The notes under the pieces are model-generated. The model did no database searches, had not been told where the DNA came from, and saw nothing but the letters and a program-made list of their open reading frames with translations. A stretch of DNA of 64,000 nt from Tegillarca granosa (lineage: Eukaryota), in NCBI GenBank assembly GCA_029721355.1, contig CM056607.1:8339309-8403308 (forward strand). Reading direction: 5' to 3'. Made by a program: the position numbers and the translations under genes. Shown one piece after another: positions 5,952 to 56,287 of this stretch (positions within the stretch are counted from its first letter, which is position 1; the number at the start of each line of letters is the position of its first letter).

Positions 5952-7422
5952 TATACTAGCGGAAAAAAGTAACTGTTCATCAATAAAATTTATAATTTCG
6001 CTATTATTACTGAATGTATAAATCTTAAAATTTGCACCAATGGTAAGTGTATATACCTCTATCATATCATCAATTGCCCGTGATTTTTACGCTTCATGTG
6101 CACGGGTCGGTTTTCACGCAATTGTCGCCCAGCATTTCAGTGTGACAATATTTTAGGAATAATTTACTGTTGTTTGTTTGTTTGGACACCAGAAAACCAG
6201 AAAAGCAAGTTTATTCGGTTGAAAGCTTCCATAGTCTAATGCCTAGGCTAAATGAAAATGATCGCCTCTGCACAATTGGTATGCTTGAGGCTGGTATGAC
6301 CCAAAGCTTTGTCACTAGACATTTTGGTGTCCACAGAAACACTGTTTATGCTTTATGGAGACGATACCAACAGTTTGGCACCACTAGAGACCGCCCTCGT
6401 TCAGGACGTCCACACGTAACGACACGTCAGCAAGACAACCATATCCGGCTTGTGCACCCCCGGAATCGTTTCCAAACTGCCAGTACTACTGCCTGGAGCA
6501 TTCCTGGACTACGCCCAATCAGCCCCAGAACAGTAAGGAATCATTTACGGGAAAGACATATTGGCCCACGACATCCGGCAATCCGTCCAATTCTACAACG
6601 ACGTGATCGCACAGCTCGCCTTGCATGGTGCAGAACACATTTACGCTTCAATCTACGAGATTGGACACAAATTATGTTCACCGATGAGTCTAGATTTCAC
6701 TTGGACAGCAGTGACGGACGCTCCAGAGTGTATCAGCCCATTGGAGAACGTTTTCATGACGCGTGTGTGGTGGAACGACGTTGGTTCGACGGGGGCAGTG
6801 TAATGGTTTGGGGTGGCATCACAGCGAATGACAGAACTCCTCTGGTAGTCATCGTCAGGAATTTTACCAGTGTACGGTACCCTGATGAAATCCTACATAC
6901 CCATGTCATCCGATTCATTCAAGGACAGCAACGTAATGTCACTTTTCAGCATGATAATGCAAGACCACTCGTCACACGAGTTGCAATGGATTTTCTGGCA
7001 CAGCATAACGTCAATGTGTTACCATGGCCAGCCGTTTCACCAGACTTTTCTCCAATTGAACACGTATGGGATGAAATGGAACGTCGATTACATCATCTGC
7101 CTAATCAGCCTGTTACATTGCAAGGGTTGGCCCAAGCGTTAGACCAGATATGGAACAACATCCCTCAAGCATTCTTTAGGCATTTAATCAACTCTATGAG
7201 GCATCTCTGTCTCATGATACTGATCTTGTGAACTGACTTTTACTATCTGCTATGTTTCTAGTCCCCTGGGTATGAAATAACAATATCTAACCTTTTCAAT
7301 GACATGAATTTGTAAAGAAATATCTAATAAACAAATACGAAATTATTCATTGCTTTGCATTTTCAAATTATTTTATAATCACACATTTCAGTCATGCACA
7401 GTTACTTTTTTCCGCTAGTATA
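5952..7422 (+). mobile_element. Tc1-family (DD34E) DNA transposon, apparently intact, in PARP4 intron 1 about 85 bp upstream of exon 2
   Basis: Perfect 25-bp terminal inverted repeats TATACTAGCGGAAAAAAGTAACTGT (5952-5976) and ACAGTTACTTTTTTCCGCTAGTATA (7398-7422). TA dinucleotides at both ends are consistent with a TA target-site duplication. A single uninterrupted transposase ORF lies inside. Confidence 0.85.
6239..7231 (+). CDS. Tc1-like transposase (paired-like HTH + DDE catalytic domain, DD34E)
   Basis: MPRLNENDRLCTIGMLEAGMTQSFVTRHFGVHRNTVYALWRRYQQFGTTRDRPRSGRPH.. Catalytic motifs FTDESRF, QHDNARPLV and SPDFSPIEHVWDEM with 34 residues between the second D and E. The ORF track begins 23 codons earlier at 6170 via a non-ATG start. 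Confidence 0.85.
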   Translation: MPRLNENDRLCTIGMLEAGMTQSFVTRHFGVHRNTVYALWRRYQQFGTTRDRPRSGRPHVTTRQQDNHIRLVHPRNRFQTASTTAWSIPGLRPISPRTVRNHLRERHIGPRHPAIRPILQRRDRTARLAWCRTHLRFNLRDWTQIMFTDESRFHLDSSDGRSRVYQPIGERFHDACVVERRWFDGGSVMVWGGITANDRTPLVVIVRNFTSVRYPDEILHTHVIRFIQGQQRNVTFQHDNARPLVTRVAMDFLAQHNVNVLPWPAVSPDFSPIEHVWDEMERRLHHLPNQPVTLQGLAQALDQIWNNIPQAFFRHLINSMRHLCLMILIL

Positions 7423-12407: not shown

Positions 12408-12575
12408 GTTGAAGATGCAGAAGTAGCTTTAATGCAGCTGAAGAATTCTGTGTGTTCTGGAAATGATAAAAATAAACAACAACAATATACAGAGGAGTTT
12501 TATCAAGCCATTCCACATAAAATTAAATCCAGTTTAAATCTTAGACAAATCACAGCAAAACAAGATCTGTGTCAG
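12408..12575 (+). CDS. PARP4: PARP4-like exon 7; its 3' end is the founder of the 59-bp minisatellite
   Basis: tctgcag|GTT.. ..TGTCAG|gtatgt. VEDAEVALMQLKNSVCSGNDKNKQQQYTEEFYQAIPHKIKSSLNLRQITAKQDLCQ ~ human TAEQLQKMMTEFYRLIPHKGTMPKEVNLGLLAKKADLCQ. Confidence 0.85.
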
Positions 12576-15500
12576 GTATGTGATGAAGATATACCTTAGA
12601 CAAATTACAGCAAAACAAGCTCTGTGTCAGGTATGTGATGAAGATAAATAACCTTAGACAAATCACAGCAAAACAAGATATGTGTCAGGTATGTGATGAA
12701 GATAAATAACCTTAGACAAATCACAACAAAACAAGATCTGTGTCAGGTATGTGATAAAGATAAATAACCTTAGACAAATCACAGCAAAACAAGATCTGTG
12801 TCAGGTATGTGATGAAGATAAATAACCTTAGACAAATCACAGCAAAACAAGATCTGTGTCAGGTATGTGATGAAGATAAATAACCTTAGACAAATCACAA
12901 CAAAACAAGATATGTGTCAGGTATGTGATGAAGATAAATAACCTTAGACAAATCACAACAAAACAAGATCTGTGTCAGGTATGTGATTAAGATAAATAAC
13001 CTTAGACAAATCACAGCAAAACAAGATCTGTGTCAGGTATGTGATGAAGATAAATAACCTTAGACAAATCACAGCAAAACAAGATCTGTGTCAGGTATGT
13101 GATGAAGATAAATAACCTTAGACAAATCACAACAAAACAAGATCTGTGTCAGGTATGTGATGAAGATAAATAACCTTAGACAAATCACAACAAAACAAGA
13201 TCTGTGTCAGGTATGTGATGAAGATAAATAACCTTAGACAAATCACAACAAAACAAGATCTGTGTCAGGTATGTGATGAAGATAAATAACCTTAGACAAA
13301 TCACAGCAAAACAAGATCTGTGTCAGGTATGTGATGAAGATAAATAACCTTAGACAAATCACAGCAAGACAAGATCTGTGTCAGGTATGTGATGAAGATA
13401 ATACCTTAGACAAATTACAGCAAGACAAGATCTGTGTCAGGTATGTGATGAAGATAAATAACCTTAGACAAATCACAGCAAAACAAGATCTGTGTCAGGT
13501 ATGTGATGAAGATAAATAACCTTAGACAAATCACAGCAAGACAAGATCTGTGTCAGGTATGTGATGAAGATAAATAACCTTAGACAAATCAGAGCAAAAC
13601 AAGATCTGTATCAGGTATGTGATGAAGATAAATAACCTTAGACAAATCACAGCAAGACAAGATCTGTGTCAGGTATGTGATTAAGATAAATAACCTTAGA
13701 CAAATCACAGCAAAACAAGATCTGTGTCAGGTAGTGTGATTAAGATAAATAACCTTAGACAAATCACAGCAAGACAAGATCTGTGTCAGGTATGTGATTA
13801 AGATAAATAACCTTAGACAAATCACAGCAAAACAAGATCTGTGTCAGGTATGTGATTAAGATAAATAACCTTAGACAAATCACAGCAAAACAAGATCTGT
13901 GTCAGGTATGTGATGAAGATAAATAACCTTAGACAAATCACAGCAAAACAAGATCTGTGTCAGGTAGTGTGATTAAGATAAATAACCTTAGACAAATCAC
14001 AGCAAACAAGATCTGTGTCAGGTTGTGATGAAGATAAATAACCTTAGACAAATCACAGCAAAACAAGATCTGTGTCAGGTATGTGATTAAGATAAATAAC
14101 CTTAGACAAATCACAGCAAAACAAGATCTGTGTCAGGTATGTGATTAAGATAAATAACCTTAGACAAATCACAGCAAAACAAGATCTGTGTCAGGTATGT
14201 GATGAAGATAAATAACCTTAGACAAATCACAGCAAAACAAGATCTGTGTCAGGTATGTGATTAAGATAAATAACCTTAGACAAATCACAGCAAAACAAGA
14301 TCTGTGTCAGGTATGTGATGAAGATAAATAACCTTAGACAAATCACAGCAAAACAAGATCTGTGTCAGGTATGTGATTAAGATAAATAACCTTAGACAAA
14401 TCACAGCAAGACAAGATCTGTGTCAGGTATGTGATTAAGATAAATAACCTTAGACAAATCACAGCAAAACAAGATCTGTGTCAGGTTTGTGATGAAGATA
14501 AATAACCTTAGACAAATCACAGCAAAACAAGATCTGTGTCAGGTATGTGATTAAGATAAATAACCTTAGACAAATCACAGCAAGACAAGATCTGTGTCAG
14601 GTATGTGATTAAGATAAATAACCTTAGACAAATCACAGCAAAACAAGATCTGTGTCAGGTATGTGATTAAGATAAATAACCTTAGACAAATCACAGCAAA
14701 ACAAGATCTGTGTCAGGTATGTGATTAAGATAAATAACCTTAGACAAATCACAGCAAAACAAGATCTGTGTCAGGTATGTGATTAAGATAAATAACCTTA
14801 GACAAATCACAGCAAAACAAGATCTGTGTCAGGTATGTGATTAAGATAAATAACCTTAGACAAATCACAGCAAAACAAGATCTGTGTCAGGTATGTGATT
14901 AAGATAAATAACCTTAGACAAATCACAGCAAAACAAGATCTGTGTCAGGTATGTGATGAAGATAAATAACCTTAGACAAATCACAGCAAAACAAGATCTG
15001 TGTCAGGTATGTGATTAAGATAAATAACCTTAGACAAATCACAGCAAAACAAGATCTGTGTCAGGTATGTGATTAAGATAAATAACCTTAGACAAATCAC
15101 AGCAAAACAAGATCTGTGTCAGGTATGTGATTAAGATAAATAACCTTAGACAAATCACAGCAAAACAAGATCTGTGTCAGGTATGTGATGAAGATAAATA
15201 ACCTTAGACAAATCACAACAAAACAAGATCTGTGTCAGGTATGTGATGAAGATAAATAACCGTAGACAAATCACAGCAAAACAAGATCTGTGTCAGGTAT
15301 GTGATTAAGATAAATAACCTTAGACAAATCACAGCAAAACAAGATCTGTGTCAGGTATGTGATGAAGATAATAACCTTAGACAAATCACAGCAAAACAAG
15401 ATCTGTGTCAGGTATGTGATGAAGATAAATAACCTTAGACAAATCACAGCAAAACAAGATCTGTGTCAGGTATGTGATTAAGATAAATAACCTTAGACAA

Positions 15501-16530
15501 ATCACAGCAAACAAGATCTGTGTCAGGTATGTGATTAAGATAAATAACCTTAGACAAATCACAGCAAAACAAGATCTGTGTCAGGTATGTGATGAAGATA
15601 AATAACCTTAGACAAATCACAGCAAAACAAGATCCGTGTCAGGTATGTGATTAAGATAAATAACCTTAGACAAATCACAGCAAAACAAGATCTGTGTCAG
15701 GTATGTGATTAAGATAAATAACCTTAGACAAATTACAGCAAGACAAGATCTGTGTCAGGTATGTGATTAAGATAAATAACCTTAGACAAATTACAGCAAG
15801 ACAAGATCCGTGTCAGGTGTGTGATTAAGATAAATAACCTTAGACAAATCAGAGCAAAACAAGATCTGTGTCAGGTATGTGATTAAGATAAATAACCTTA
15901 GACAAATCACAGCAAACAAGATCTGTGTCAGGTATGTGATTAAGATAAATAACCTTAGACAAATCAGAGCAAAACAAGATCTGTGTCAGGTGTGTGATTA
16001 AGATAAATAACCTTAGACAAATCACAGCAAAACAAGATCTGTGTCAGGTATGTGATTAAGATAAATAACCTTAGACAAATCACAGCAAAACAAGATCTGT
16101 GTCAGGTATGTGATTAAGATAAATAACCTTAGACAAATTACAGCAAGACAAGATCCGTGTCAGGTGTGTGATGAAGATAAATAACCTTAGACAAATCAGA
16201 GCAAAACAAGATCCGTGTCAGGTATGTGATGAAGATAAATAACCTTAGACAAATCACAGCAAAACAAGATCCGTGTCAGGTATGTGATTAAGATAAATAA
16301 CCTTAGACAAATCACAGCAAACAAGATCTGTGTCAGGTATGTGATGAAGATAAATAACCGTAGACAAATCACAGCAAAACAAGATCTGTGTCAGGTATGT
16401 GATGAAGATAAATAACCGTAGACAAATCACAGCAAAACAAGATCTGTGTCAGGTATGTGATTAAGATAAATAACCTTAGACAAATCACAACAAAACAAGA
16501 TCTGTGTCAGATATGTGATTAAGATAAATC
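12537..16530 (+). repeat. 59-bp minisatellite x ~67 (TTAGACAAATCACAGCAAAACAAGATCTGTGTCAGGTATGTGATGAAGATAAATAACC); the first unit is the last 39 nt of PARP4 exon 7 plus the first 20 nt of intron 7
   Basis: Direct reading. Near-identical units with point variants (gaag/taag, caaa/caag, ctt/cgt). Every unit retains TGTCAG|GTATGT. Confidence 0.95.
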
Positions 16531-18433: not shown

Positions 18434-18999
18434 GTATGTATGGTATGTTAGTCACAAAATTAATTCTGCCACCCTCTCATTTAGAAATAATAAACCATTT
18501 GGCTAGTTCCGTTATTCAATTTGTATTTTACAATTACAACTGTCAACTTATGTACTTCCAACAAAAAAGAGTTTCACTTGATAAGTGTGTTTTTTTTTAC
18601 GTATTGAATGGCCTTTTATAAACTGTCAACTGAACAACCAGCTGTTCCCAAAGTTTGTCCAGTCTGCAACTTTTGTAAAAATAATGTGTCCAGTTTAACT
18701 TCTTAGGAAATGGATAATTTACAATTCTTTATTGAATGAATTCAAACATAAGTATACAGAGTTAGAACCCAAAAATTGCTTTTATCATTCAAAAACAAAA
18801 GAATTGCAATATGTCATTCATATATGACCATGTAATTACCCCAATGGCTGCATCACTTCATGAAATATTCGTTGACATGTGAAAGCCAGTTTGTGTTATT
18901 CGATGATAAAGCACAGGTAGATACTTATTTTTTTTTTTTATTGAAAACCTCAAATTCCAAATTCACTCAGTTCTAAATTACACATTTATTTTTTTTCAG

Positions 19000-19098
19000 A
19001 GGGTTATTACTACCAAATATAGCTGTAGACCAGTATGGAGTAAGTCAGACTGATGCTGGTATGTTAGGTGCTGGGATATATTTCTCTAATTCACTTAA
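19000..19098 (+). CDS. PARP4: PARP4-like exon 10 (catalytic Tyr, GIYFS)
   Basis: ttttttcag|AGG.. ..CTTAA|gtaagt. RGLLLPNIAVDQYGVSQTDAGMLGAGIYFSNSL ~ human RGLLLPKVVEDRGVQRTDVGNLGSGIYFSDSL. Confidence 0.85.
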
Positions 19099-19309
19099 GT
19101 AAGTATGATTTTTATCTCATCTGCAAAAAGGGCAAAAAAAGTTATTTCCTCTCATATCACACTTTTAAAAATTGATTTTGTCTGTGACAAGCCTTTGGGT
19201 TTACTGTATTTTCTGAACCAACAAAATAGCCATGATTTCATCCACACATGTGAAAGAGTCTTTTAGCCTTACACCTGGTATTTGTGATAGCATAAGTGTC
19301 CAATGCTAA

Positions 19310-19795
19310 AGAACAACCTCAATAAAATGATCCATCCATACAGTTAAGTTTTCTGATCCATCCATACAGGTAAGCTTTTTGATCCATACATACATATAAG
19401 CTTCTTGATGCATCCATTCAGGTAAGCTTTCTGATGCACCCATACAGGTAAGTTTTCTGATGCACCCATACAGGTAAGCTTTCTGATGCATCCATACAGA
19501 TAAGCTTTCTGATGCATCCTTACAGGTAAGTTTTCTGATGCACCCATTCAGGTAAGCTTTCTGATGCATCCATACAGTTAAGCTTTCTGATGCACCCATA
19601 CAGGTAAACTTTCTGATGCACCCATACAGGTAAGCTTTCTGGTGCATCTAAACAGGTAAGTTTTCTGATGCATCCATACAGGTAAACTTTCTGATGCACC
19701 CATACAGGTTAGCTTTCTGATGCATCTATACAGGTAAGTTTTCTGATGCATCCATACAGATAAGCTTTCTGATGCATCCATACAGGTAATTATCT
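19310..19795 (+). repeat. 26-bp minisatellite x ~18 (CATACAGGTAAGYTTTCTGATGCAYC), each unit containing the consensus 5' splice site CAGGTAAG; PARP4 intron 10
   Basis: Direct reading; period 26 measured between successive catacaggta. Confidence 0.9.
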
Positions 19796-20505
19796 AAACA
19801 TGCTAGACTGTTAAGACATTTCATTATTAATTGGCAATATCTCTTTAAATGTTTCCTGTTAACGAGCCCAGTGCAATTAGGAACTTCCAGAAGTAGAAAA
19901 TTCATGTGTCTGAAATGAATTCCACCTTTTCCAATCAAGTGACCCAGATAAACTCTTCAAATGGGAAGGGAAAAAAATGTAAAAAATGGCAACTTCCATT
20001 ATGGAATTTTAGCATTTTGATGAACATTTAAATAGTTTTTAAGAAGATTTTATACTCCAATTGGTGAAAATGAAAACCTGCTTATTTTATTGCTTTTAAA
20101 TAGGCAAGTATTTTATGTATAGTTAACAGTTGTATTCGCTGAGTCCTCCATATTTTAAGCATGTGACATGCATATCTTCTGAAATTATGCCCGATTTTTA
20201 AAAGAGTCAGAAATGCTTCTGGAAAAGGAAGTTGCCCAGTCAAAAATTCAGAAGGCATTTTACGTGAGTAACTCGTGTTTTCTACTTCTGGAAGTTCCCA
20301 ATCGCATCAGGGTCTAGTAATAAGGCATCACTTGTTACAGTGATGAATACCATTGACCATCAGTTTTAGACCAATATTAAAGATAATACACTGCTGTATT
20401 GTAAATTCATTGGCAAAAAAGTTTAATGATTGTTTGTAAAAATATTGCATAAAATATGGTGTCAAATTATTTCAGAATTTTAATGATTTTCTATTTTCAT
20501 TTCAG

Positions 20506-20683
20506 TATAAGTAATCTTTACTCAAAACCAAGTGTTCATACTGGTTCAAGATTTGTACTTCTCTGTGAGGTTGCTCTTGGAAAATCTTGTAAATTTTCAA
20601 AGCCTGATCCAAAATTGAAAGCACCACCTGTAGGTTATGACAGTGTTTGTAGAGTTTTAAGTGAAGAAAATCACAGTATTGAG
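20506..20683 (+). CDS. PARP4: PARP4-like exon 11
   Basis: catttcag|TAT.. ..ATTGAG|gtaaga. NISNLYSKPSVHTGSRFVLLCEVALGKSCKFSKPDPKLKAPPVGYDSVCRVLSEENHSIE ~ human YSHPGETDGTRLLLICDVALGKCMDLHEKDFSLTEAPPGYDSVHGV. Confidence 0.85.
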
Positions 20684-21312
20684 GTAAGAATGTTTTTATT
20701 GCATAACATGTCCCTTCTATTTGTGTCACTGTAATTTTGTCAATGAATTATTTAGAATTTTCATAGAAATTTCAATGAACTATAATTCAGCATCTTTTAC
20801 TCGCTTAAGTCTAGTCATAACTGAAAATCAGGTATCCGCAATTACCATAGAAGAATACACACAGTAAAAATATGTCTCTTTGGGGGTTTTACTTGTTAAA
20901 AAACAAGGCAAATGGTAAATTCTTTTGCACATTTAATGTAATGCAACACTAAAACATCACTTTCAGTGTAAAAACCACCATTTTCAACATATAGAATCCC
21001 CATAGCAGCAATGTTTTACTTTCTACAGAAATAATTTATGACATTTGCAGATGCCCATAGCGATTTCCAGTTACGACCAATTAATTGTAGCAAGACCATA
21101 TAATAAAAAACATAATACACAGATGAAGTATCGCTGTCATTTCCATGGTAACTGTGTAGTTTTAAATGAAGAAAATAGCAATATTGAGGCACGAATTTTT
21201 CGTTATGCATATCCTGTCCCTAAATCCATATAGCAAAATCCTAAACATATTTGTGAACAAATGTTTTGACTAATGACTCTTTAATTATCATCAGCTGTAT
21301 ATTTTATTTTAG

Positions 21313-22150: not shown

Positions 22151-22281
22151 ATATAAATGATGTTAAAGACATTCCTGATCCATTAGCTAAAGTGGAGGCA
22201 GGTTTAATTGGAGGAAAGAAAAATTCTGTACCTCTGAAAAGTGTTCATATCAGAGCTAAATTACTGGATCTTGTAGGACAG
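22151..22281 (+). CDS. PARP4: PARP4-like exon 13
   Basis: tttgctttag|AT.. ..GGACAG|gtaaat. DINDVKDIPDPLAKVEAGLIGGKKNSVPLKSVHIRAKLLDLVGQ ~ human NLVPLEDVHIKGRIIDTVAQ. Confidence 0.75.
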
Positions 22282-22360
22282 GTAAATATATGGAATTTTA
22301 ATTCAGTATCTTACTGGATCTTGTAGGACAGGTAAATATATGGAAGTCTAATTCAGTATC
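22261..22360 (+). repeat. 50-bp tandem duplication of the exon-13 3' end + donor (TTACTGGATCTTGTAGGACAG|GTAAATATATGGAA.T.TAATTCAGTATC x2)
   Basis: Direct reading; the second copy carries an intact GACAG|GTAAAT. Confidence 0.9.
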
Positions 22361-22700
22361 TCCTACAGACATGTGAGATCATTATTCAACAAATAGAACT
22401 AAAGGAAAATATATGGTGTTTTGTGCCCCATTCGAGATCATTTTTCTCACTTATATCAAGGTGGTGTAGGACAACAGAGTACTTGGTTAAAAACCACTGA
22501 CACTCCATAAGTAAACTGACAAACTTTAGAGGTAATCGGGCAAAACTCTTTGAAAAAATATGATAATATGTATTTGAAATATCTGTTATCAAATATAAAT
22601 GTTATAAAAAGATAGAATTTACAAAGTTTAATTTTTTCACTTTTATCATCATCATCATCATCATCAAGTGTCACTCTATCAAATCAAAATTTTATTTTAG

Positions 22701-25743: not shown

Positions 25744-25878
25744 AAAACTGCAACCAAAGCTGTACTACAATTACCAAAGAATGCACAACTAGATGAAGGT
25801 TTTCAGCTACTGATTATGTTGTCAGAAATACATGTACCCAGAATGTGGGTAGAAAGACATCCAGACAAAGATAGTCAG
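25744..25878 (+). CDS. PARP4: PARP4-like exon 18
   Basis: ctattccag|AAA.. ..AGTCAG|gtatca. KTATKAVLQLPKNAQLDEGFQLLIMLSEIHVPRMWVERHPDKDSQ ~ human ..SAAYLPRMWVEKHPEKESE. Confidence 0.8.
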
Positions 25879-26100
25879 GTATCACATCTGTTTGTGTCGG
25901 GGAGGGGACAAAAAGTTTTGGGTGTTAGGGGAATAAAATGGTAGAAAGACACCCAGACAAAGCTAGTCAGGTATGGCATCTGTTTATGTGTTGGGGGATG
26001 AAAAGTTATGGGTGTTAGAGGAATTAAATGGCAAAAGGACATCCAGACAAAGATTGTCACATATTACATCTGTTTGTTTGTTTGGGGGGGGAGGGTTGAA
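25850..26100 (+). repeat. ~85-bp unit x 3 comprising the exon-18 3' end + donor (GTAGAAAGACAYCCAGACAAAGMTAGTCAGGTATSRCATCTGTTT..GGGG..GTTAGGGGAATAAAATGG)
   Basis: Copy 1 is the real exon end (25850-25935). Copy 2 (25940-26025) retains GTCAG|GTATGG. Copy 3 (26028-26105) has GTCACATATT, so its donor is lost. Confidence 0.8.
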
Positions 26101-35588: not shown

Positions 35589-38047
35589 AGCTCACCTGAC
35601 CGAAAGGTCATGTGAGCTTATGGCATGGCGAGGCGTGTATGTGCGTGCGTGTGTGTGTGCGTGCGTGTGTGCGTACGTCGTTAACACCTATTTTCGACTT
35701 CTCCTCCAAAACTGTTGGGCAGATTTCAATGATACTTGGTCAGAAGCATATATGGGCCGGTGCAATTCAGATTTGTTCATGGCATTGCCATGGCTACCAA
35801 AACTAGATGAAGGTGACCTAGGGGTCCAAAAATCTTAAAAAATCTTCTTCTCTAAAACCGATGATGAGAGAAAAAATCTGATGTGATATTTGGCTTCTCT
35901 AGGGTCTTAAGCTTATAGTTTGTTCATTTCGTGAAATTTGGTCGAAAAATGGGTTACACGTTTTTGCGTTTAATTTTAAAAATTTCGTAAAATGGCTTCA
36001 AATTGTTATAACTTGACTATTTGAACAGATATTGACATGGGGTTTTCAGTTTTGACTTTGTCTTGAAATGACCTTTAAAATAGGGTCAAGGTCACAAATC
36101 AAGGTCATGACCTAACTTGTGATTTGTGCAGTTTTAGGCAGTTTACTTGAAAAATATTAAGAGATATATGGAATCAAAACATTGTTAAAATGTTCAGCAT
36201 GACAAAATTTAGCAAGGTACCAAGTTTTGTAACTATATGATAATTCATGTAGGAGTTGTTGCCCCTGAAATGTTATTTTTTGCTTACAAATACTAAAATT
36301 GTGCATTAGCTTGAAAGCTATAAACTTTTTGTATTAGTGTGTATATTAGAATATTGTAGGTATTGATATGATGATCATTTTGATATATGGTTCAAGGTCA
36401 TAACTGCAGAAGAAGACTGAAATTGTTAATCATCTTGAAAACTATGAACTTTTTGTATAGGCATGTATATTAAAATATTGCAAATATTTATATAACAATC
36501 ATTTTGATATATGGTTCAAGGTCATATGTTCAAAGGTCAAGGACATAGCTGTAGAAGAAGGCTGAAATTGTGAATTATCTTGAAAACTATTTGTATAGGC
36601 ATGTATATTAGAATACTGTAAATCAGGAAATTAATGCGTCATGAAATTTATGCGAATTGCCGATTTTGAAGTAAAATGCCTATCTATATTAATGTGAATT
36701 TGTTAAATTCCATTTTTTTAAAGCAGACGCTAACAGCGTCAGCTTTATTGCGATCAGGAAGGTTGACGGAAGTGTTGGATTGAGACCTCTATCGGCCAGA
36801 TTTGACTGTTTTAGCGGGACATTCAAATGTTTGATAAGGCATTTTCCACAAACACCAATATATATCTACGAGACTCTTGACAGAAATTACATAAATAAAG
36901 AGAACAGTAATAATTAAATGTATAATAATTAACAACTCAACTGGATACGTGAATAAAATTGTCGGATTTTCCACCCTCCGTTTTTTTTTTTTACATTTTC
37001 CCCACAACGATTCCCCCCTTACCTTGTGCCGTCGAACTTTTGGTACAAAGTTTCATAACTATATGATAATCCATGTAGGAGTTGTTGCCCCTGAAATGTT
37101 ACTTTTGGCTTATAAATACTAAAATTGTGCATTAGCTTGAAAACTTTAATTTTTTTTGTATAGGCATGTATATTAAAATATTGTAGGTATTGACATGATG
37201 ATCATTTTGATATATGGTACAAGGTCATATGTTGAAAGGTCAAGGTCACAGCTGCAAAAGAAGACTTAAATTGCTAATACTTTTGAAAACTAATAACTTT
37301 TTGTATAGGCATGTATATTAGAATATTGTAGGTATTGCAACAATGATCATTTTAATATATGGTACAAGGTCATATGTTGAAAGGTCAAGGTCACAGCTGC
37401 AAAAAAAGAGTTAAATTGCTAATTATCTTGAAAACTATTTATTTTTTGTATAGGTATGTATATTAGAATATTGTAGGTATTGCGACAATGATCATTTTGA
37501 TATATGGTACAAGGTCATATGTTGAAAGGTCAAGGTCACAGCTGCAAAAGAAGAGTTAAATTGCTAATTATCTTGAAAACTATTAACTTTTTGTATAGAA
37601 ATATATATTAGAATATTGTAGGTATTCGACAACAATCATTTTGATATATGGTACAAGGTCATATGCTGAAAGGTCAAGGTCACCGTTGCAAAAGAAGACT
37701 TAAATTGCTAATTATCCTGAAAACTATAAACATTTTGTACAAGCATGTTTATTAGAATATTGTACGTATTGATATTAAGACCATTTTGATATAAGGTTCA
37801 AGTTCACATGTTCAAAGGTCAAAATCATGGCTGCATAACCATATGGTTAATGATTTGGAAATTATCTATTGTACTATAGTTAAATGGTGCATATGAGCTA
37901 TTATAAATGAAATGTGACTAGAGATTTCTGATTAATTATTGCAGGATTTTCCAAAACTGAGGAATTTTGTGAACTTTTTGTATTTAAGTTCTTTGTAAGT
38001 TTTTGGATATGTCCTCAGGTGAGCGTTAAGGCCCATGGGCCTCTTGT
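35589..38047 (+). mobile_element. Helentron-like non-autonomous element copy T2 with an internal satellite array (~139-bp unit x ~6) and a nested unrelated ~430-bp insertion (36610-37040); PARP4 intron 26
   Basis: 5' end tttttAGCTCACCTGACCGAAAGG; 3' end CCTCAGGTGAGCGTTAAGGCCCATGGGCCTCTTGT|t. The subterminal AGCTCACCTG / CAGGTGAGCG are inverted repeats. A palindromic GGCCCATGGGCC hairpin sits 8 nt from the 3' end, flanked by T...T, as in Helitron2/Helentron insertions. Confidence 0.5.
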
Positions 38048-40599: not shown

Positions 40600-43500
40600 C
40601 AATTTTTATTTAGCCACCCCCTTATCACTACAAAATACACATATCATGTGAAATACAGTTACAGCTGCTCTACAGTTAAACATGTCTAAAAGCCATACCT
40701 GTTTTAGCCATCCCCTAATCACTAAAAGATACACATATTATATGAAATACAGTTACACCTGCTCTACAGTAAAACCTGTCTAAAAGCCATACCTGTTTTA
40801 GCCATCCCCTAATCACTATAAGATACACATATTATATGAAATACAGTTACACCTGCCCTACATTAAACCTGTCTAAAAGCCATACCTGTTTTAGCCATCC
40901 CCTAATCACTATAAGATACACATATTATATGAAATACAGTTACACCTGCTCTACAGTAAAACCTGTCTAAAAGCCATACCTGTTTTAGCCATCCCCTAAT
41001 CACTATAAGATACACATATTATATGAAATACAGTTACACCTGCCCTACATTAAACCTGTCTAAAAGCCATACCTGTTTTAGCTGTCCCCTAATCACTATA
41101 AGATACACATATTATATGAAATACAGTTACACCTGCCCTACAGTAAAACCTGTCTAAAAGCCATACCTGTTTTAGCTGTCCCCTAATCACTATAAGATAC
41201 ACATATTATATGAAATACAGTTACACCTGCTCTACAGTAAAACCTGTCTAAAAGCCATACCTGTTTTAGCTGTCCCCTAATCACTATAAGATACACATAT
41301 TATATGAAATACAGTTACACCTGCTCTACAGTAAAACCTGTCTAAAAGCCATACCTGTTTTAGCCATCCCCTAATCACTATAAGATACACATATTATATG
41401 AAATACAGTTACACCTGCTCTACAGTAAAACCTGTCTAAAAGCCATACCTGTTTTAGCTGTCCCCTAATCACTATAAGATACACATATTATATGAAATAC
41501 AGTTACACCTGCCCTACAGTAAAACCTGTCTAAAAGCCATACCTGTTTTAGCCATCCCCTAATCACTAAAAGATACACATATTATATGAAATACAGTTAC
41601 ACCTGCCCTACATTAAACCTGTCTTAAAGCCATACCTGTTTTAGCCATCCCCTAATCACTATAAGATACACATATTATATGAAATACAGTTACACCTGCC
41701 CTACATTAAACCTGTCTAAAAGCCATACCTGTTTTAGCTGTCCCCTAATCACTATAAGATACACATATTATATGAAATACAGTTACACCTGCCCTACAGT
41801 AAAACCTGTCTAAAAGCCATACCTGTTTTAGCCATCCCCTAATCACTAAAAGATACACATATTATATGAAATACAGTTACACCTGCCCTACATTAAACCT
41901 GTCTAAAAGCCATACCTGTTTTAGCTATCCCCTAATCACTAAAAGATACACATATTATATGAAATACAGTTACACCTGCTCTACAGTAAAACCTGTCTAA
42001 AAGCCATACCTGTTTTAGCCATCCCCTAATCACTATAAGATACACATATTATATGAAATACAGTTACACCTGCTCTACAGTAAAACCTGTCTAAAAGCCA
42101 TACCTGTTTTAGCCATCCCCTAATCACTAAAAGATACACATATTATATGAAATACAGTTACACCTGCTCTACAGTAAAACCTGTCTAAAAGCCATACCTG
42201 TTTTAGCCATCCCCTAATCACTAAAAGATACACATATTATATGAAATACAGTTACACCTGCTCTACAGTAAAACCTGTCAAAAAGCCATACCTGTTTTAG
42301 CCATCCCCTAATCACTAAAAGATACACATATTATATGAAATACAGTTACACCTGCTCTACAGTAAAACCTGTCTAAAAGCCATACCTGTTTTAGCCATCC
42401 CCTAATCACTATAAGATACACATATTATATGAAATACAGTTACACCTGCTCTACAGTAAAACCTGTCTAAAAGCCATACCTGTTTTAGCTGTCCCCTAAT
42501 CACTATAAGATACACATATTATATGAAATACAGTTACACCTGCTCTACAGTTAAACATGTCTAAAAGCCATACCTGTTTTAGCTGTCCCCTAATCACTAA
42601 AAGATACACATATTATATGAAATACAGTTACACCTGCTCTACAGTAAAACCTGTCTAAAAGCCATACCTGTTTTAGCCATCCCCTAATCACTATAAGATA
42701 CACATATTATATGAAATACAGTTACACCTGCTCTACAGTAAAACCTGTCTAAAAGCCATACCTGTTTTAGCTGTCCCCTAATTACTAAAAGATACACATA
42801 TTATATGAAATACAGTTACACCTGCTCTACAGTAAAACCTGTCTAAAAGCCATACCTGTTTTAGCTGTCCCCTAATCACTAAAAGATACACATATTATAT
42901 GAAATACAGTTACACCTGCTGTACAGTAAAACCTGTCTAAAAGTCATACCTGTTTTAGCTGTCCCCTAATCACTAAAAGATACACATATTATATGAAATA
43001 CAGTTACACCTGCTCTACAGTAAAACCTGTCTAAAAGCCATACCTGTTTTAGCTGTCCCCTAATCACTATAAGATACACATATTATATGAAATACAGTTA
43101 CACCTGCCCTACATGAAACCTGTCTAAAAGCCATACCTGTTTTAGCCATCCCCTAATCACTATAAGATACACATATTATATGAAATACAGTTACACCTGC
43201 CCTACATTAAACCTGTCTAAAAGCCATACCTGTTTTAGCTGTCCCCTAATCACTATAAGATACACATATTATATGAAATACAGTTACACCTGCTCTACAG
43301 TAAAACCTGTCTAAAAGCCATACCTGTTTTAGCTGTCCCCTAATCACTATAAGATACACATATTATATGAAATACAGTTACACCTGCCCTACATTAAACC
43401 TGTCTAAAAGCCATACCTGTTTTAGCCATCCCCTAATCACTATAAGATACACATATTATATGAAATACAGTTACACCTGCCCTACATTAAACCTGTCTAA

Positions 43501-43975
43501 AAGCCATACCTGTTTTAGCCATCCCCTAATCACTATAAGATACACATATTATATGAAATACAGTTACACCTGCCCTACATTAAACCTGTCTAAAAGCCAT
43601 ACCTGTTTTAGCTGTCCCCTAATCACTAAAAGATACACATATTATATGAAATACAGTTACACCTGCTCTACAGTAAAACCTGTCTAAAAGCCATACCTGT
43701 TTTAGCTGTCCCCTAATCACTAAAAGATACACATATTATATGAAATACAGTTACACCTGCTCTACAGTAAAACCTGTCTAAAAGCCATACCTGTTTTAGC
43801 TGTCCCCTAATCACTAAAAGATACACATATTATATGAAATACAGTTACACCTGCTCTACAGTAAAACCTGTCTAAAAGCCATACCTGTTTTAGCTGTCCC
43901 CTAATCACTATAAGATACACATATTATATGAAATACAGTTACACCTGCCCTGTAAAACCTGTCATACAGTTGAAA
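40600..43975 (+). repeat. 93/94-bp satellite x ~36 in PARP4 intron 30 (CCATACCTGTTTTAGCYRTCCCCTAATCACTAWAAGATACACATATTATATGAAATACAGTTACACCTGCYCTACAKTAAAACCTGTCTAAAAG)
   Basis: Direct reading. Two unit subtypes (acagtaaaacc / acattaaacc) alternate. ORF 43367..43687 is a translation of it. Confidence 0.95.
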
Positions 43976-45318: not shown

Positions 45319-45750
45319 ACTTAGAAGAAGAGGACAATTTAACCAATGATGATTTTAATGCAGAGTTAAGATGGTCCGAAGCAGATCAAATTCATTGTCT
45401 TCTCTTGCTTGATGTTACACCATTATCGTTGGGTATCGAAACAGCGGGTGGCCTTATGGATGTAATAATAAAACGAAACTGTACCATACCAACCAGAAAA
45501 TCTAAAAAATATTCCACATATTGTGATTATCAGACAAAAATAGTGATAAAAATATTTGAAGGTGAACGAGCATTAACCAAAGACAATAACTATTTAGGAG
45601 AATTTGAAATCCATAATATAATGCCTGCTCCCTATGGTGAGCCCCAGATTGAAGTCACTATGGATATTGATGCAAATGGTATTCTTACTGTGTCAGCAGT
45701 CGATAAATCTACAGGAAATGGCAACAAATTGTGTATTACTAATGACAAAG
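45319..45750 (+). CDS. HSP70-family fragment, exon A: substrate-binding domain (SBD-beta); no nucleotide-binding domain found nearby
   Basis: tgtttcag|AC.. ..GACAAAG|gtaaaa. (D)[143 protein letters not shown] ~ HSPA8 [118 protein letters not shown]. Confidence 0.75.
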
Positions 45751-46133
45751 GTAAAATAAAATCTTCACTCATCAAAACTGTGTCGATTTCTGATGTATCT
45801 AATTTTATCTAATTGCCAAAAGTAGTCTAAAATTTTTTTTTTTTAAATTTCACTAGAGTTAATTAGTTCAGCTTTCCCTTTTTCAAAAGCATTTTTAAAC
45901 AGAGATTGTTTGCTATTGTTTCAACATGTTTGAAAACTCTTAAAAATGTTTCTTTTAAACTACTAATATTTATAAAGTACTGTGAATGTCATGTGAGATG
46001 GCATGCAGAGGAATACATGTTTAATTAACATTAAAGCAAAGATTTTTCTTCTGAAAACTTTTAAACTTTTCTGAACTTTGTAGCTGATGCATAATTAGTT
46101 AATTTTTTTCCAAATTCATAAGTTCTGGCATTT

Positions 46134-46842: not shown

Positions 46843-48577
46843 AGCTCACCTGAGCTGAAAGCACAGATGAGCTATTGCTATCCATCTTCGTCGATCGTGT
46901 GTCGTGCGTAAACTTTTCATTTTAATCTTCTCCTCCAAAACCACTGGGCCAAATTTAATGAAACTTGGTAACCATCATGCCTGGGTGAAGCCCTTTCAGA
47001 TTTGCACAAATAAAGGAGTAATGTCCCCTTGGGGCCCCATAAGGGGGGAAAGAGTGAAAAAATTTGAAATCTTCTCCTCTGAATCTACAAGAGATATACC
47101 TTAGTTATTTCATTTATAACATCCTTATGTCATCTATTTTCAGATTTGCACAAATGGTAGCCGTGGGGCTCAAAATGGGGAAATTGTAAGGCACTGAGTG
47201 GGGAAATTACTAAAAATTATATATTTGTCACTATATCTTGAAAACTATCAACTTTTTGTATAGGCATGTATATTAGAATATTGTAGGTATTGACATGCCA
47301 ATGATTTTGATATATATTGTTCAGGGTCATACATTCAAAGGTCAAGGTCACAGCTGCAAAAGAAGACATAATTTGCTAATTATCTTGAAAACTATTAACT
47401 TTTTACAGGCATGTATATTAGAATATTGTAGGTATTGCAACAACGATCAATTTGATATATGGTTCAAAGTCATATGTTGAAAGGTCAAGGTCACAGCTGC
47501 AAAAGAAGACTTAAATTGCTATTTATCTTGAAAACTTAAACTTTTTGTATAGGCATGTATATTAGAATATTGTAGCTATTGACATGCCAATCATTTTGAT
47601 ATATGATTCAAGGTCATACGTTCAAAGGTCAAGGTCACAGCTGCAAAAGAAGACTTAAATTGCTAATTATCTTGAAAACTAATAACTTTTTGTATAGGCA
47701 TGTATATTAGAATATTGTAGCTATTGACATGCCAATCATTTTGATATATGATTCAAGGTCATACGTTCAAAGGTCAAGGTCACAGCTGCAAAAGAAGACT
47801 TAAATTGCTAATTATCTTGAAAACTAATAACTTTTTGTATAGGCATGTATATTAGAATATTGTAGGTATTGTGACAAGGATCATTTTGATATATGGTTCA
47901 AGGTCATATGTTGAAAGGGCAAAGCAGCAAAAGAAGACATAAATTGCTAATTATCTTGAAAACTATTAACTTTTTGTATAGGCATTGCCACAACGATCAT
48001 TTTGATAAATGATACAAGGTCATATGTGGAAAGGTCAAGGTCACAGCTGCAAAAGAAGACTTAAATTGCTAATTATCTTGAAAACTATTAACTTTTTGTA
48101 TAAGCATATATATTAGAATATTTTAGGTATTGACATGACAATAATTTTGATACATGGGTCAAGGTCATATGTGGAAAGGTCAAGGTCATATCAACATAGG
48201 AATACTAAAAATACTAATTATCTTGAAAGCCTTTAATTTCATGCATAGGCATGTATATTAGAATAATGTAGGTATTGACATGACAATCATATATGGTTCG
48301 AGGTCATATATGTTCAAAGGTCAAGGACATAGCTGCATAAGTATACTGAAATTGATTTATGATTTGGAAATTATTCATTGCGATACAGTAACTTCATGCA
48401 TATTATATAAGCTACTTATAAATGAAATTTGAGTGGATATATTTCTGATTAAATTTGTGGAAGTTCTTAATTTGAGAAAAATTTTCAAGTTTCTGTACTT
48501 AATACATTGTCTATTGCACTTTGCATACAATATTGGACATATCTTCAGGTGAGCGTTAAGGCCCATGGGCCTCTTGT
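46843..48577 (+). mobile_element. Helentron-like non-autonomous element copy T3 with internal satellite monomers; PARP4 intron 30
   Basis: The 5' AGCTCACCTGAGC.. and 3' ..CTTCAGGTGAGCGTTAAGGCCCATGGGCCTCTTGT termini match T2. Internal ..tgtataggcatgtatattagaatattgtaggtattgacatg..caaggtcatatgttcaaaggtcaaggtcacagctgcaaaagaagac.. monomers. Confidence 0.5.
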
Positions 48578-48894: not shown

Positions 48895-51083
48895 GCTCAC
48901 CTGGCTTTAGCCAGCGTGAGCTTATGGTATGATGCGGCGTGTGTATGTGCGTGCGTGCGTGCGTGCGTCCGTAAACTTTACATTTTAATCTTCTTCTCCA
49001 AAACCACTGGGCCAAATTTGATGAAACTTGGTTACCATTATGCCTGGGTGAAGCCCTTTCAGATTTGCAAAAATGAAAGAGTTATGTCCCCTTGGGGCCC
49101 CATAAGGGGGGAAATAGTGAAAAACTTTAAAAATCTTCTCCTCTGAATGTACAAGAGATATACCTTAGTTATTTCATTTATACCATCCCTAGGTCATCTA
49201 GTTTCAGATTTGCACAAATGGTAGCCATGGGGCTCAAAATGGGGAAATTATAAGGTACTAAGTGGGAAAATTGCTTAAAATTATATATTTGTCACTATAT
49301 CTTGAAAACAATTGACTTTTTGTATAGGCATGTATATTAGAATATTGTAGGTATTGACATGACAATCATTTTAATATATGGTTCAAGGTCATATGTTGAA
49401 AGGTCAAGGTCACAGCTGCAAAAAAAAAACTTAAATTGCTTATTATCTTGAAAACAATTGACTTTTTGTATAGGCATGTAAATTAGAATATTGTAGGTAT
49501 TGTGACAAAGATCATTTTGATATATGATACAAGGTCATATGTTCAAAGGTCAAGGTCACAGCTGCAAAAGAAGACATAAATTGCTAATTATCTTGAAAAC
49601 TATGAACTTTTTGTATAGGCATGTATATTAGAATATTGTAGGTATTGACATGACAATCATTTTGATATATGGATCAAGGTCATATGTTTAAAGGTCAAGG
49701 TCACAGCTGCAAAAGAAAACTTAAATTGCTAATTATCTTGAAAACTATAAACTTTTTGTATAGGCATGTATATTAAAATATTGTAGGTATTGACATGACA
49801 ATCATTTTGATATATGGTTCAAGGTTATATGTTGAAAGGTCAAGGTCACAGCTTCAAAAAAGACTTAAAATGCTAATTATTTTGTAAACTATGAACTTTT
49901 TGTATGGGCATGTATATTAGAATATTGTAGGTATTGACATGACGATCATTTTGATATATGGTTCAAGATCATATGTTCAAAGGTCAAGGTCACAGCTTCA
50001 AAAAAGACTTAAAAGGCTAATTATCTTGTAAACTATGAACTTTTTGTATAGGCATGTATATTAGAATATTGTAGGTATTGACATGACGATCATTTTGATA
50101 TATGGATCAGGGTCATATGTTGAAAGGTCAAGGTCATAGCTGCAAAAGAAGACTTAAATTGCTAATTATCTTGAAAACTATAAACTTTTTGTATGGGCAT
50201 GTATATTAGAATATTGTAGGTATTGACATGACAATCATTTTCATGTATGGTTCAAGGTTATATGTTGAAAGGTCAAGGTCACAGCTGCAAAAAAAAAGAC
50301 TTAAATTGCTTATTATCTTGAAAACAATATTGAGTGCGGAAGGTCCTTAGGTGGTATAGATTCAAAATTGTATCCAACATGTCTGTCAGAAATCCAAGAT
50401 GGCTGCCGTTACTCTAAATAACAAAAATAAAAAAATGGCCATTTTGGGTTTATTTTTGTACTGATTTTGTTGAAATTTGAAACATAGAAAATAGATGTCG
50501 AGGGATAAAACATATATAACGGGTTTTTCCTTACGATTTTTCATTTGTGTAATAATTACGTAATATGCAAATAAGGTTTATTTTTAGCCATAATCTTTGA
50601 AAATCTTCTCTTAAAGTACGTGGCCAATTGAAAGGATATGGAAGTGTGGAAGGTCCTTGGGTGGTATAGATTCAAAATTGTATCCGACATGTCTGTCGGA
50701 AATCCAAGATGGCCGCCATAGCAAAAATCGAAAAATGGCCATTATGGGTTTATTTACATGTATATACTGATTTTGTTGAAATTTATAACATAGAAACTAG
50801 ATGTTGGGGATAAAACATATGTAATGGGTTTTTCTGTACAATTTTCCTTTTTTGCAATAATTATGTAACATGCAAATAAGGTTTATTTCAGCCTAAATCT
50901 TCTGAAAGTACATGGCCAATTGAAAGAAATTTTATGATTCATAGCGCTTGAAATAATAGAAAATAAGGATATTGCTAGTGAGTTTGTTTTATATTTTATT
51001 GATTGAATATATTTAAAAAGAAAAAGCAAAGAACAAATAAGGATGTGCCAGGTGAGCGATACAGGCCCTATTGGGCCTCTTGT
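48895..51083 (+). mobile_element. Helentron-like non-autonomous element copy T4: same termini and satellite, plus a different cargo (a ~310-bp direct duplication at 50330-50940) and a variant 3' hairpin; PARP4 intron 30
   Basis: 5' tttttAGCTCACCTGGC..; 3' ..GCCAGGTGAGCGATACAGGCCCTATTGGGCCTCTTGT|t (hairpin AGGCCCTATTGGGCCT). Confidence 0.45.
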
Positions 51084-52792: not shown

Positions 52793-55218
52793 GACAATTT
52801 GAGTATCAGATCAGATATGTCCAGTGAGTTACCAGATCAAGTTCCTGTCCAAAAGGCTAACTTAATTGGTAAAAAAATAATTGCTACAAAAGGTGCAAGA
52901 AAATCTAGTTTTGAAGAAAGTGTCCCCACCTCAAAAGATCAAGTTGTTGACCAAGATGATGTTGATATTCCTAGTGACAGTTTAGATGAAAGTGATTACT
53001 CAGAGGAAGCTGAGTGTCCCATACAACAACCTATTCCTAAAAAAGAACTCCCTAAATATGCTGCCAGAAAGTCTGCACCAATAGCCAATATTATTACTGT
53101 TGACTATTCAGATGAGGCCGAGGATGATGAAGGTGAGAGCATTATGGGAACAGAAGATTCTCCGCCAGCTTCAGAAGACTTTTCTTATGCTTTCCAGTAT
53201 GCAGATAGAAAGGATAGCTTGCTGGATGAAGGTTCTTTTTCACCAGGGTTACAAAGTTATGACAAAAAAATCGATGCAATTGACATTGAAAAAGGGAGTT
53301 TGAAAACAGGTTCAGCCAATAAGAAGGCAAAAAAATCCAAAATGTCTGATATAAATGTTTCAGCTGATATGTCACCAACAAATGGTCCTTTTGAGGATAG
53401 TTCACTACCATCACATTTATTTGGTCTTGGATCATCTTCACTGTTGGAAACAACAAATGCATTGGATATTGAGGGTGAAATAGATTTGTCAGACTTCCTG
53501 AATGGAACTGTTGCTACACCATTGTTCCAAAGTCAAGATAGTACTACTTTTAATGATGCTCTCATGAATGAATCAGAACCCCCTGCAGATGTTCCAACAC
53601 AATCATTTCAAGCATTTGAGCTAGCATCACCTATGTACCAGCAAGTATCACCATGTTATAACCCCACATCTCCATCCTATAGTCCCACATCTCCATCTTA
53701 CAGCCCCACATCACCAGCATATAACCCTGCAACTCCAGCATACAGTCTAACATCTCCAGCATACAAACCCTCTTCATCGTCCTTTGACAAGACAGGTCAT
53801 AGTGACATGCATACTCTTACAGTTCAGTCTGCTGGATTTGAACCAGAAAAAGATGAAAGACATGTATCTGATATGTATTTTGCTCCAGACTTTGATCCTG
53901 TTTTGTTACCAGCAAAGTTACCATCAAAACCAAGCAAGCATACTGCCTTTGGTTTGAGTGGATATGGGTCACTGGACCAGTCAGGGTTTGATTCTAGTGA
54001 ACTGAGTCGTCTTCATTTCCCTGGTTTCAGTTCTGAAGGATATAGCTCCCAGAGCCAGTCAAGATTTGATTCCAGTGGAACAAAAAAACCACATGCATTT
54101 GGTTTTGGGGGAAATCTTGAACTTCAAAATCAAATCCAACAATGTATACAACCACCACCACCACCACCAGTCAGAAAGAGAACAATAAGACAGACATTTA
54201 TTGATAAAGAATTGATGCAAGAAGTGGATCCTCATACTGAAGAAAATATTAACCACACATTTCAACCTCAGGTACAGCCTTCTTTACAAGACATACCTTT
54301 GCCACCAGAATCACCTCTGTGGAAATCATCAGATGAATCATACTTACATGCTCTTGACAAAAATTCAGCACATTATGATCCAAAAACCAGATTGATGATT
54401 ACTGCTGAGAGTAGATTAGTGGATACAGACAGTAGGGTCAAAGGTTTTCAGGACAGAGATCTTTCCCATAAATTTGTAATAAACAAGAGAGGTAGAGGAA
54501 GGGGAGGTAAAGTAATCAGAATGTCAGTATCAAGTGAGCAAAATGTACAAGAAAAAAGGAAGAGAGAGGGCAAACATAGGAGCCCTGATTCAGAAAGTAG
54601 ATCAAGAAATAGAAATGTGAGGCAATGGCAAGGTAGTAGAAGCTGGTCTATAAGTAGGTCTAGAAGCAGAAGTCATGGACATAGGGTAGAAAGAAGAAGG
54701 TCAAGAAGCAGAAGTCGTGAACCTAGGGTAGACAGGAGAAGTAGGTCAAGAAGCAGAAGTCATGAACCTAGGGTAGACAGGAGAAGTAGGTCTAGAAGCA
54801 GAAGTGATGGACATAGTGTAGACATGAGAACTAGGTCAAGAAGCAGAAGTCCAGAGCACAGGGATAGATGGTCAAGAAGACGGTCTAGTAGCAGAAGTCA
54901 TGAACATAGTGTAGACATGAGAACTGGGTCAAGAAGTGGAGGTTTTGGTTACCAAAGTGACAGAGGAATAGGGTTTAGAAATAGATCAAGAAGCAGAAGT
55001 TATGATCACTCTGCCACTAAAAAGAGGGGAAAAAGTAGGTCTAGAGAAAGGGGACAAAAAGATGAAGGAACCAGAAAATCAAGGAGTAGAGACAAGGATA
55101 GACAAAGACATAAAGATAGACAGTTAGCTGTTAGTCCAGAGAGACATGTTTCTTTTCTAGATGCTGCTACATCAAGAGAAAGCATGGGCAGAGATGCTAG
55201 GAAAGATGAAAATAAACA
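52793..55218 (+). CDS. PARP4: PARP4-like exon 32: 2.4-kb exon encoding an acidic/S-P-rich low-complexity region, 6 RNA-Pol-II-CTD-like YSPTSPS heptads, a PPPPPP tract and an Arg/Ser (RS) domain
   Basis: cattaacag|GAC.. Open for 808 codons. The TAA at 55220 overlaps a consensus donor ca|GTAAGT at 55219, which must be used to reach the conserved C-terminal exons. Contains [41 protein letters not shown] and [36 protein letters not shown]. Confidence 0.75.
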
Positions 55219-56287
55219 GTAAGTATTTTATATGATTTATCTTTAAAATATTTGTAAAATCATTTGTTAAGGTTACAAGCCAAAAAATGGTTTTATCTCC
55301 AATCATTACCAAAATATATTAATATAATGAAAATACAAGAGCCCCAATTTGATTTAAGTCTTTAGAAAGGATCCTGCTTATTGAGGCTTTTGGGGGCCCA
55401 TCTTCCAGATAACTTTTTTATCTTAAAATATTTATGGATAATTATACCAGCACTACCATATGCAATATCACACACCCTAAATATGACATGGGTCTTTACA
55501 TAATTGATTTTTTGCATTGTACATCAGCAGACCAACTTGATGATTCAGCTGTTGATGTACAGGGCTAATATCACCATATACCTTAATCATTTGCTAGAAA
55601 ATTCTGTTACTGCCTGATCCCTTGTTGAGATTAATTCTATTTCTGCCCTTAACTAAACTTCCTGATTTTCAATCACTACGTGATTGTCTATTACTTTGAA
55701 CATCTCAGACAATTACTTAAATCAGTTTTGACAATAGAATAGGAGTTGTATTCTTGTCTGTGACATATTTGCTTGGCAAGCTAGCCACTCAACAAAGAGT
55801 CAACCTGAGTGTATGCTTGTATAAAGCAGACAATAACACACACCTGCACATACATGTAATCCTTAGGATTAATAAAACTTGCTCTTTTCACAAATAGCTG
55901 AAAAATTGCTGAGGTTTAACAATGTAAAAGTCAATCCATGTTCCAAGGGTGTGACATGACCTTGAATCATGTCATGTGTAAGGTCAAGGTCATGGAGTGC
56001 CTGTCTGCAGGGGTATTAGAAAGTACTGGGGGTATTACTGGAGAAAATTCTAATTAATCTTGGTAAGAAAACATCATCATTAATATCTTTTAAAATTCAA
56101 TTTTCCTTAAATATTTTTTACCACAAAATGTTTTGACTTGTATTTTTAGATTGCTATTTTTTTACAACTAGAGCAATGAAATTGGCATTGTATTTATATC
56201 AAAAGATTTTCATGCCAGTGTAGACTATGTATTGAGTCTATTGACAGTCAGTACTCTTTTTTATTGAATTTACTTATGTAATTCCAG

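Follow-up and report, generated by a model that had tools for sequence, protein, structure and literature searches.

Minisatellite-like tandem duplications of exon-intron boundaries have been described in the amphioxus Adh3 and globin genes under the name 'mirages' (Ebner et al. 2010, PMC3087553), and repeats of this type have hitherto been known mainly from amphioxus. In intron 7 of the human F7 gene (IVS7), the pseudo-sites carried by a VNTR were found experimentally to be functional and to be out-competed by the most upstream site (PMC1557585). Recursive splicing has been described for long introns (PMC8605326). The locus described here lies in an intron of a PARP4 (vault PARP)-like gene on the plus strand of the window, by which we mean the whole 64-kb stretch of eukaryotic DNA that was analysed (32% G+C), and consists of a short tandem unit that contains a donor-like motif.

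Full-length PARP4 proteins from a representative search were mapped by tblastn to at least 22 exons between positions 4861 and 38422. The nearest named PARP4 proteins in NCBI/UniRef are those of Hydra vulgaris, Helobdella robusta, a frog and a fish, with 45-75% identity per exon. The label 'exon 10' follows the numbering of an earlier, sequence-only reading of this DNA, and the 5' exons of the PARP4-like gene are partly mapped. Pfam assigns the PARP catalytic domain to both of the exons that flank the array. The features of the host intron and its borders are as follows, with a slash marking the exon-intron boundary.

19000..19098, plus strand: upstream exon ('exon 10'), PARP catalytic domain (...GAGIYFSNSL), donor CTTAA/GTAAGT at 19098/19099 (tblastn, 52-63% identity; Pfam PF00644).
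19099..20505, plus strand: host intron, 1407 nt.
19333..19790, plus strand: 26-bp x ~18 minisatellite, consensus CATCCATACAGGTAAGCTTTCTGATG (TRF, in-register units, exact motif search and search with up to 3 mismatches).
19872..20306, no strand assigned: MITE-like insertion in the host intron, with 29-nt terminal inverted repeats (TGCAATTAGGAACTTCCAGAAGTAGAAAA) that are 93% complementary (inverted-repeat search).
20506..20683, plus strand: downstream exon ('exon 11'), acceptor tttcatttcag/TATAAG, donor ATTGAG/GTAAGA (Logan contig L001, tblastn).

The array begins 234 nt past the exon-10 donor and its last GT site lies about 690 nt past it, on the sense strand of the gene; the earlier placement of the repeat as intronic, sense and 200-700 bp downstream of the real donor is thus borne out. 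Past the end of exon 10 the reading frame stays open for a single codon of the intron (K, then stop), so that use of an array donor in place of the exon-10 donor would give a non-productive message. The MITE-like element, whose repeats (19872-19900 and 20278-20306) are 377 nt apart and which measures 435 nt in all, is separate from the array and starts 80 nt downstream of it. Together the two make up about 890 of the 1407 nt of the intron. When both are subtracted (458 nt for the array, 435 nt for the element), about 515 nt remain, and this is a typical intron size for the PARP4-like gene, in which the mapped introns are mostly 400-770 nt long. An early intron of the same gene holds an intact-looking Tc1/mariner-type transposase ORF of 353 aa (6170-7231, plus strand; Pfam DDE_3 and HTH_Tnp_Tc3_2).

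TRF reports the array at 19328-19789 with a period of 26, 17.8 copies, 87% matches and 0% indels, and gives its consensus as TGATGCATCCATACAGGTAAGCTTTC; when the units are set in register from 19333 the consensus reads CATCCATACAGGTAAGCTTTCTGATG. Sixteen units lie within 3 mismatches of this consensus, exclusively on the plus strand, where shuffled sequences give an expectation of 0, and as a tandem array the repeat is far above chance. The tandem repeat of 26 bp x 18 that the sequence-only reading described is therefore real. Its edges are degenerate in the usual pattern: GATCCATCC replaces GATGCATCC in the first units, and the final unit breaks off after CAGGTAAT. With a head-to-tail unit inside the range of roughly 10-100 bp, this is a minisatellite, and its sole special point is the near-perfect 5' splice-site consensus in the unit.

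The same reading had placed a perfect CAGGTAAG in every unit, and in this it was wrong. The exact motif search finds the 8-mer nine times in the array, that is, at 9 of the 18 in-register motif positions, and four of these nine are the full 9-mer CAGGTAAGT. (The sequence CAG/GTAAG, which had been called a 9-mer, is an 8-mer.) Weaker forms that keep the GT occupy four positions (two CAGGTAAA, one CAGGTTAG and one CAGGTAAT), and at the remaining five the GT is gone (two CAGTTAAG, two CAGATAAG and one CATATAAG), which leaves GT present in 13 of 18 and absent from 5. These 13 GT-bearing pseudo-donors are found 271-690 nt downstream of the authentic exon-10 donor, on the plus strand; among the GT positions are 19370, 19422, 19448, 19474, 19526, 19552, 19630, 19656 and 19734. 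Nine units have CAG/GTAAG and 13 have CAG/GT, juxtaposing the cores of a 3' and a 5' splice site in the form AG/GT(A/G)AGT; the unit thus has an AG directly 5' of the GT, and in addition a branch-point-like CTGAT pentamer.

The strength of the motifs was assessed with a gene-specific weight matrix (PWM) trained on 18 real donors of the PARP4-like gene. With this matrix the scores are 6.3-13.9 for the 13 array sites that bear GT and 8.8 ± 2.6 (leave-one-out) for the real donors. A generic metazoan PWM assigns 12.5-13.0 to the intact copies and 5.8 to the authentic donor of exon 10. By PWM the intact array motifs are therefore as strong as real donors and beat most of them, including that of exon 10; they are genuine donor look-alikes, as the earlier description of 'strong donor motifs' had it.

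The motif shows no sign of having been conserved for its own sake. Together the 17 full units depart from the consensus 33 times. Of these substitutions, 9 fall in the eight motif columns; a run of eight adjacent columns holds 10.2 on average, and in 10 of the 26 such column windows the number is 9 or lower. The indispensable G at +1 is changed in five units, and only the two C/T-polymorphic columns are equally or more variable. Since the donor columns are as much substituted as the rest of the unit, and G(+1) is among the most variable positions, we infer no constraint, and purifying selection on the donor motif was rejected.

We next consider where the motif came from. Each of 18 junctions of the gene, taken as 22 exon and 12 intron nucleotides, was aligned to the unit, with shuffled flanks as the null. 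The exon-10 junction gives a local alignment score of 6.0 against a null of 6.4 ± 1.3, and at none of the 18 exon/donor junctions does local alignment find similarity to the unit beyond the donor core. Derivation of the unit from the exon-10 junction or from another of the 18 was thus rejected, in agreement with the earlier remark that the array was 'not obviously derived from the neighbouring exon'. In homologues exon 10 is joined directly to exon 11 with no conserved segment missing (tblastn), and the 110 nt upstream of the array have stops in all three frames. Three other arrays of the gene do begin in the 3' end of an exon, with its donor included.

12540-16529, sense strand: junction array, 58-mer x 69, 97% identity, exon ...CTGTGTCAG/GTATGT (TRF, tblastn).
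22257-22361, sense strand: junction array, 50-mer x 2, ...GGACAG/GTAAAT (TRF, tblastn).
25853-26088, sense strand: junction array, 90-mer x 2.6, ...ATAGTCAG/GTATCA (TRF, tblastn).

The largest of these, in a 4.8-kb intron, has 64 donor-like sites on the sense strand, and its first unit consists of the exon 3' end plus the donor. When the criterion is relaxed, 17 arrays include three of the junction type where 1.09 would be expected, an excess only weakly beyond chance (P = 0.08).

The frequency with which donor-like motifs should turn up in repeat units by chance was estimated from the window itself. The TRF output comprises 64 rows; some 29 arrays have a period of at least 10, and tandem repeats take up about 25% of the bases; because the window is so rich in minisatellites, one more array is to be expected. 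In the background outside tandem repeats, donor-like sites scoring at least 12 occur at 0.12/kb per strand, and the probability that one 26-nt unit holds such a site is 0.003. The probability, per strand, that at least one of 29 arrays contains such a site is 0.19 for a score of at least 12, and 0.44 for a score of at least 10. The presence of the motif inside the 26-mer unit is therefore within chance. For a score of at least 8, the expectation is 1.46 arrays with donor-like sites per strand; the sense strand has four (P about 0.05) and the antisense strand has one. Three of the four sense-strand arrays are the junction duplications, which are no evidence for selection because their donors come from the way in which the arrays arose. 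A general enrichment of donor motifs in the repeat units of the window was accordingly discarded, three of the four arrays being junction-derived and the 26-mer array lying within chance. From two intronic donor arrays in one gene, the sequence-only reading had argued for 'selection or a mechanism rather than coincidence', and for the 26-mer array this is not supported, with the GT lost from 5 of 18 copies, 9 substitutions against 10.2, and a chance probability of 0.2-0.4. A mechanism can be named for the gene's other arrays that bear donors, namely junction duplication, and it is inapplicable to the 26-mer array.

Further copies of the 26-mer (up to 3 mismatches) or of the array flanks were absent from the 64-kb window, and no inverted repeats bracket the array in a search of the window, the only clear pair being that of the MITE-like element; on these two grounds, which cover the window, a dispersed element was judged improbable. 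The exact 26-mer had 0 matches in JGI metagenome contigs. An antisense ORF of 113 aa runs stop-free through the array, and neither a homologue among 5.8 billion proteins nor a Pfam family was found for it. The closest relative found, Logan contig L001, has 87% nucleotide identity, confined to exon 11; it reaches 204 nt upstream of that exon, and about 100 nt of the intron are alignable. Contig L002, distant, apparently intronless and transcript-like, was left out of the comparison. Two PARP4 orthologues on ENA contigs (L003 and L004), in which exon 10 and the first VIT exon are about 900 nt apart, have compact introns and no tandem repeat between these exons. The array is thus no old feature of the PARP4-like gene, although these orthologues, with 83-86% identity to the window in the VIT exon and 62-66% in exon 10, are too distant to bear on its recent history.

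Several other repeats and coding regions were recorded in the window. On the minus strand, which is antisense to the PARP4-like gene, a 94-bp x 36 array at 40609-43963 (96% identity) has 35 donor-like sites (CAGGTATGG). A dispersed tandem-repeat family of about 145 bp (motif ...CAAGGTCATATGTTGAAAGGTCAAGGTCACAG...) occurs at 36292-36526, 37131-37822, 47234-48333, 49298-50328 and 63546-64000, the last of these arrays being inverted, and has the look of a satellite spread by a mobile element. The 22-mer context ATATCCTCAG/GTGAGCGTTAAG is found three times on the plus strand, at 30479, 38016 and 48546, and probably belongs to a dispersed repeat with a strong donor-like site. There is also an Hsp70 fragment at 45405-45812 (plus strand; PF00012, E = 4e-41), an open frame of 807 aa at 52799-55222 (plus strand) in which SR/RS and SPxYSPT-like repeats abound, and a Piwi-domain exon at 61989-62333 (minus strand; PF02171).

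Taken together, the array is probably a neutral, lineage-specific intronic minisatellite with silent pseudo-donors. Replication slippage or unequal exchange would be the likely mechanism by which a 26-nt stretch of AT-rich intron was multiplied where it lay, and a CAG/GTAAG that lay by chance inside this stretch would have been copied along with it. The copies would then have diverged neutrally to 87% identity, with the donor motif decaying at the rate of the unit as a whole. The 13 surviving GT sites would be at most silent pseudo-donors in the pre-mRNA: the donor of exon 10 precedes them, is transcribed before they are and belongs to a defined exon, so that the acceptor of exon 11 would be joined to this donor, and the array would leave with the intron. 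The surviving copies are expected to be silent because this authentic upstream donor would be used first, an expectation modelled on the human F7 IVS7 VNTR (PMC1557585); similar behaviour is reported for the amphioxus mirages (PMC3087553). Two observations run counter to a neutral minisatellite: the nine intact 8-mers, four of them the full 9-mer CAGGTAAGT, are stronger than most real donors, and there are four sense-strand arrays scoring at least 8 where 1.46 are expected (P about 0.05).

Two alternatives concern the origin of the array. It might be the remnant of a 'mirage', in which the 3' end and donor of an exon now lost, or of an alternative or poison exon, were duplicated from just upstream. 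Junction-spanning duplications recur in this very gene (12540-16529, 22257-22361 and 25853-26088), arrays of this kind are known from amphioxus (PMC3087553) and human F7 (PMC1557585), and the 26-mer unit has the full donor consensus from -3 to +5. However, the nearest exon is 234 nt from the onset of the array, none of the 18 junctions matches beyond the core (the exon-10 junction scoring below the mean of its null), homologues pass from exon 10 to exon 11 contiguously, the stretch of 110 nt before the array is closed by stops in three frames, and the number of junction arrays, three among 17, is itself only weakly beyond the 1.09 expected (P = 0.08); a mirage remnant therefore seems unlikely to us. 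The array might instead be one copy of a satellite, or of a repeat inside a mobile element, that is scattered over many sites irrespective of genes. The window does contain further families of dispersed tandem repeats, among them the 145-bp one with its five sites, and the MITE-like element lies only 80 nt downstream. Yet the unit, even with 3 mismatches allowed, and its flanks are single-copy in the 64 kb, no inverted repeats bracket it, the metagenome contigs of JGI gave 0 matches, and the antisense ORF is without a homologue among 5.8 billion proteins, which makes a dispersed origin improbable.

A third alternative gives the array a function in RNA. It would be a cluster of U1 snRNP sites, or of juxtaposed AG/GT dual-specific or recursive sites, that modulates PARP4 expression, whether through decoy or poison splicing that ends in NMD, by enhancing the donor upstream, or by suppressing premature polyadenylation; we regard this as very unlikely. 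The 13 sense GT sites score within or above the range of real donors, and each unit combines an AG directly before the GT with the CTGAT pentamer. The use of dual-specific sites in tandem repeats has been reported (PMC10809524), as has that of ratchet points in Drosophila (PMC8605326). Speaking against such a function, the motif is without constraint, G(+1) being lost in 5 of 18 units, and the AGs are poor acceptors: with an acceptor PWM built from the small training set of 18 real acceptors of the gene, the CAG sites of the units score -8.2 to +0.1, whereas the real acceptors score 8.6 ± 2.7 (leave-one-out) with a minimum of 3.3. The fraction of T at -20..-5 is 0.44 in the unit versus 0.60 in real acceptors. 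Recursive or dual-specific splicing was rejected on this ground. Telescripting has been described for long introns. The host intron, at 1407 nt, falls short of the long introns in which ratchet points lie, and 1.4 kb is small beside those typical of recursive splicing (PMC8605326) and telescripting. An AATAAA at 19321, directly upstream of the array, could be a signal to be suppressed, but poly(A) hexamers occur at 2.5/kb on the same strand anyway. The array RNA folds better than shuffled sequences (-124 kcal/mol versus -104 ± 6, z = -3.6), but the array is self-complementary because GATGCATC and AAGCTT, both palindromes, are present in each unit, and the folding can be traced to them. In the predicted fold the donor motifs pair between different units, and one may speculate that such pairing helps to silence them. 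No Rfam family was found over 18800-20800, and the array is absent from the two PARP4 orthologues. In its strongest form, a functional reading would have a working cluster that recruits U1, or acts through AG/GT sites, tuning PARP4 by sending part of the transcripts into non-productive splicing or by suppression of the AATAAA, and forming with the junction arrays a lineage-specific tendency towards donor arrays; this we hold to be highly unlikely. The non-productive products that it predicts, either pseudo-exons of 26n nt or an extension of exon 10 with an immediate stop, are correspondingly a long shot.

As an intronic minisatellite the array, as it stands, matters little, being one more of its kind. 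It is a useful natural example of pseudo-donors that fit the consensus better than does the authentic site 270 nt before them, and that are presumably ignored by the splicing machinery. Were its sites used, a short intron would here hold decoy or dual-specific splice sites in a naturally occurring tandem array. The junction duplications are the more interesting lead. Three exon/donor-junction duplications in one PARP4 gene, one of them repeated 69 times, suggest that 'mirage'-type minisatellites are frequent in this genome.

Comparison with the known systems places the two kinds of array differently. Like the 37-bp VNTR in intron 7 of human F7 (Borensztajn et al. 2006, PMC1557585), the 26-mer array has donor-consensus copies on the sense strand past an authentic donor. 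In F7, however, the first unit spans the boundary of exon 7 and intron 7, so that the pseudo-sites copy the real donor, whereas the 26-mer array starts 234 nt into the intron; its motif CAG/GTAAGY differs from the real donor TAA/GTAAGT, and its unit is unrelated to the exon-10 junction. The array shares with the amphioxus mirages (PMC3087553) intronic tandem units, in the size range of 10-160 bp and often with AG/GT signals, that leave normal splicing undisturbed in the mirages and presumably do so here. A mirage by definition includes part of the adjoining exon, and this is true of the three junction arrays of the gene but not of the 26-mer: same-strand donor copies lie downstream of the exon, and the first unit does not span a boundary. 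With ratchet points (PMC8605326) and dual-specific AG/GT sites, including those of the UBC tandem array (Duan et al. 2024, PMC10809524), the array has in common the juxtaposed ...CAG/GTAAG in tandem. It is unlike them in its weak, T-poor acceptor half and 1.4-kb intron, and its 26-nt spacing is far too short for a workable intron or exon and is not divisible by 3. The closest likeness is to a generic intronic VNTR, with about 18 head-to-tail copies of 26 bp, 87% identity, degenerate edges and a single locus in an array-rich region. The 58-mer x 69 array, in contrast, is a very large 'mirage' or F7-IVS7-type array, and it is this array that is the true F7 analogue of the window.
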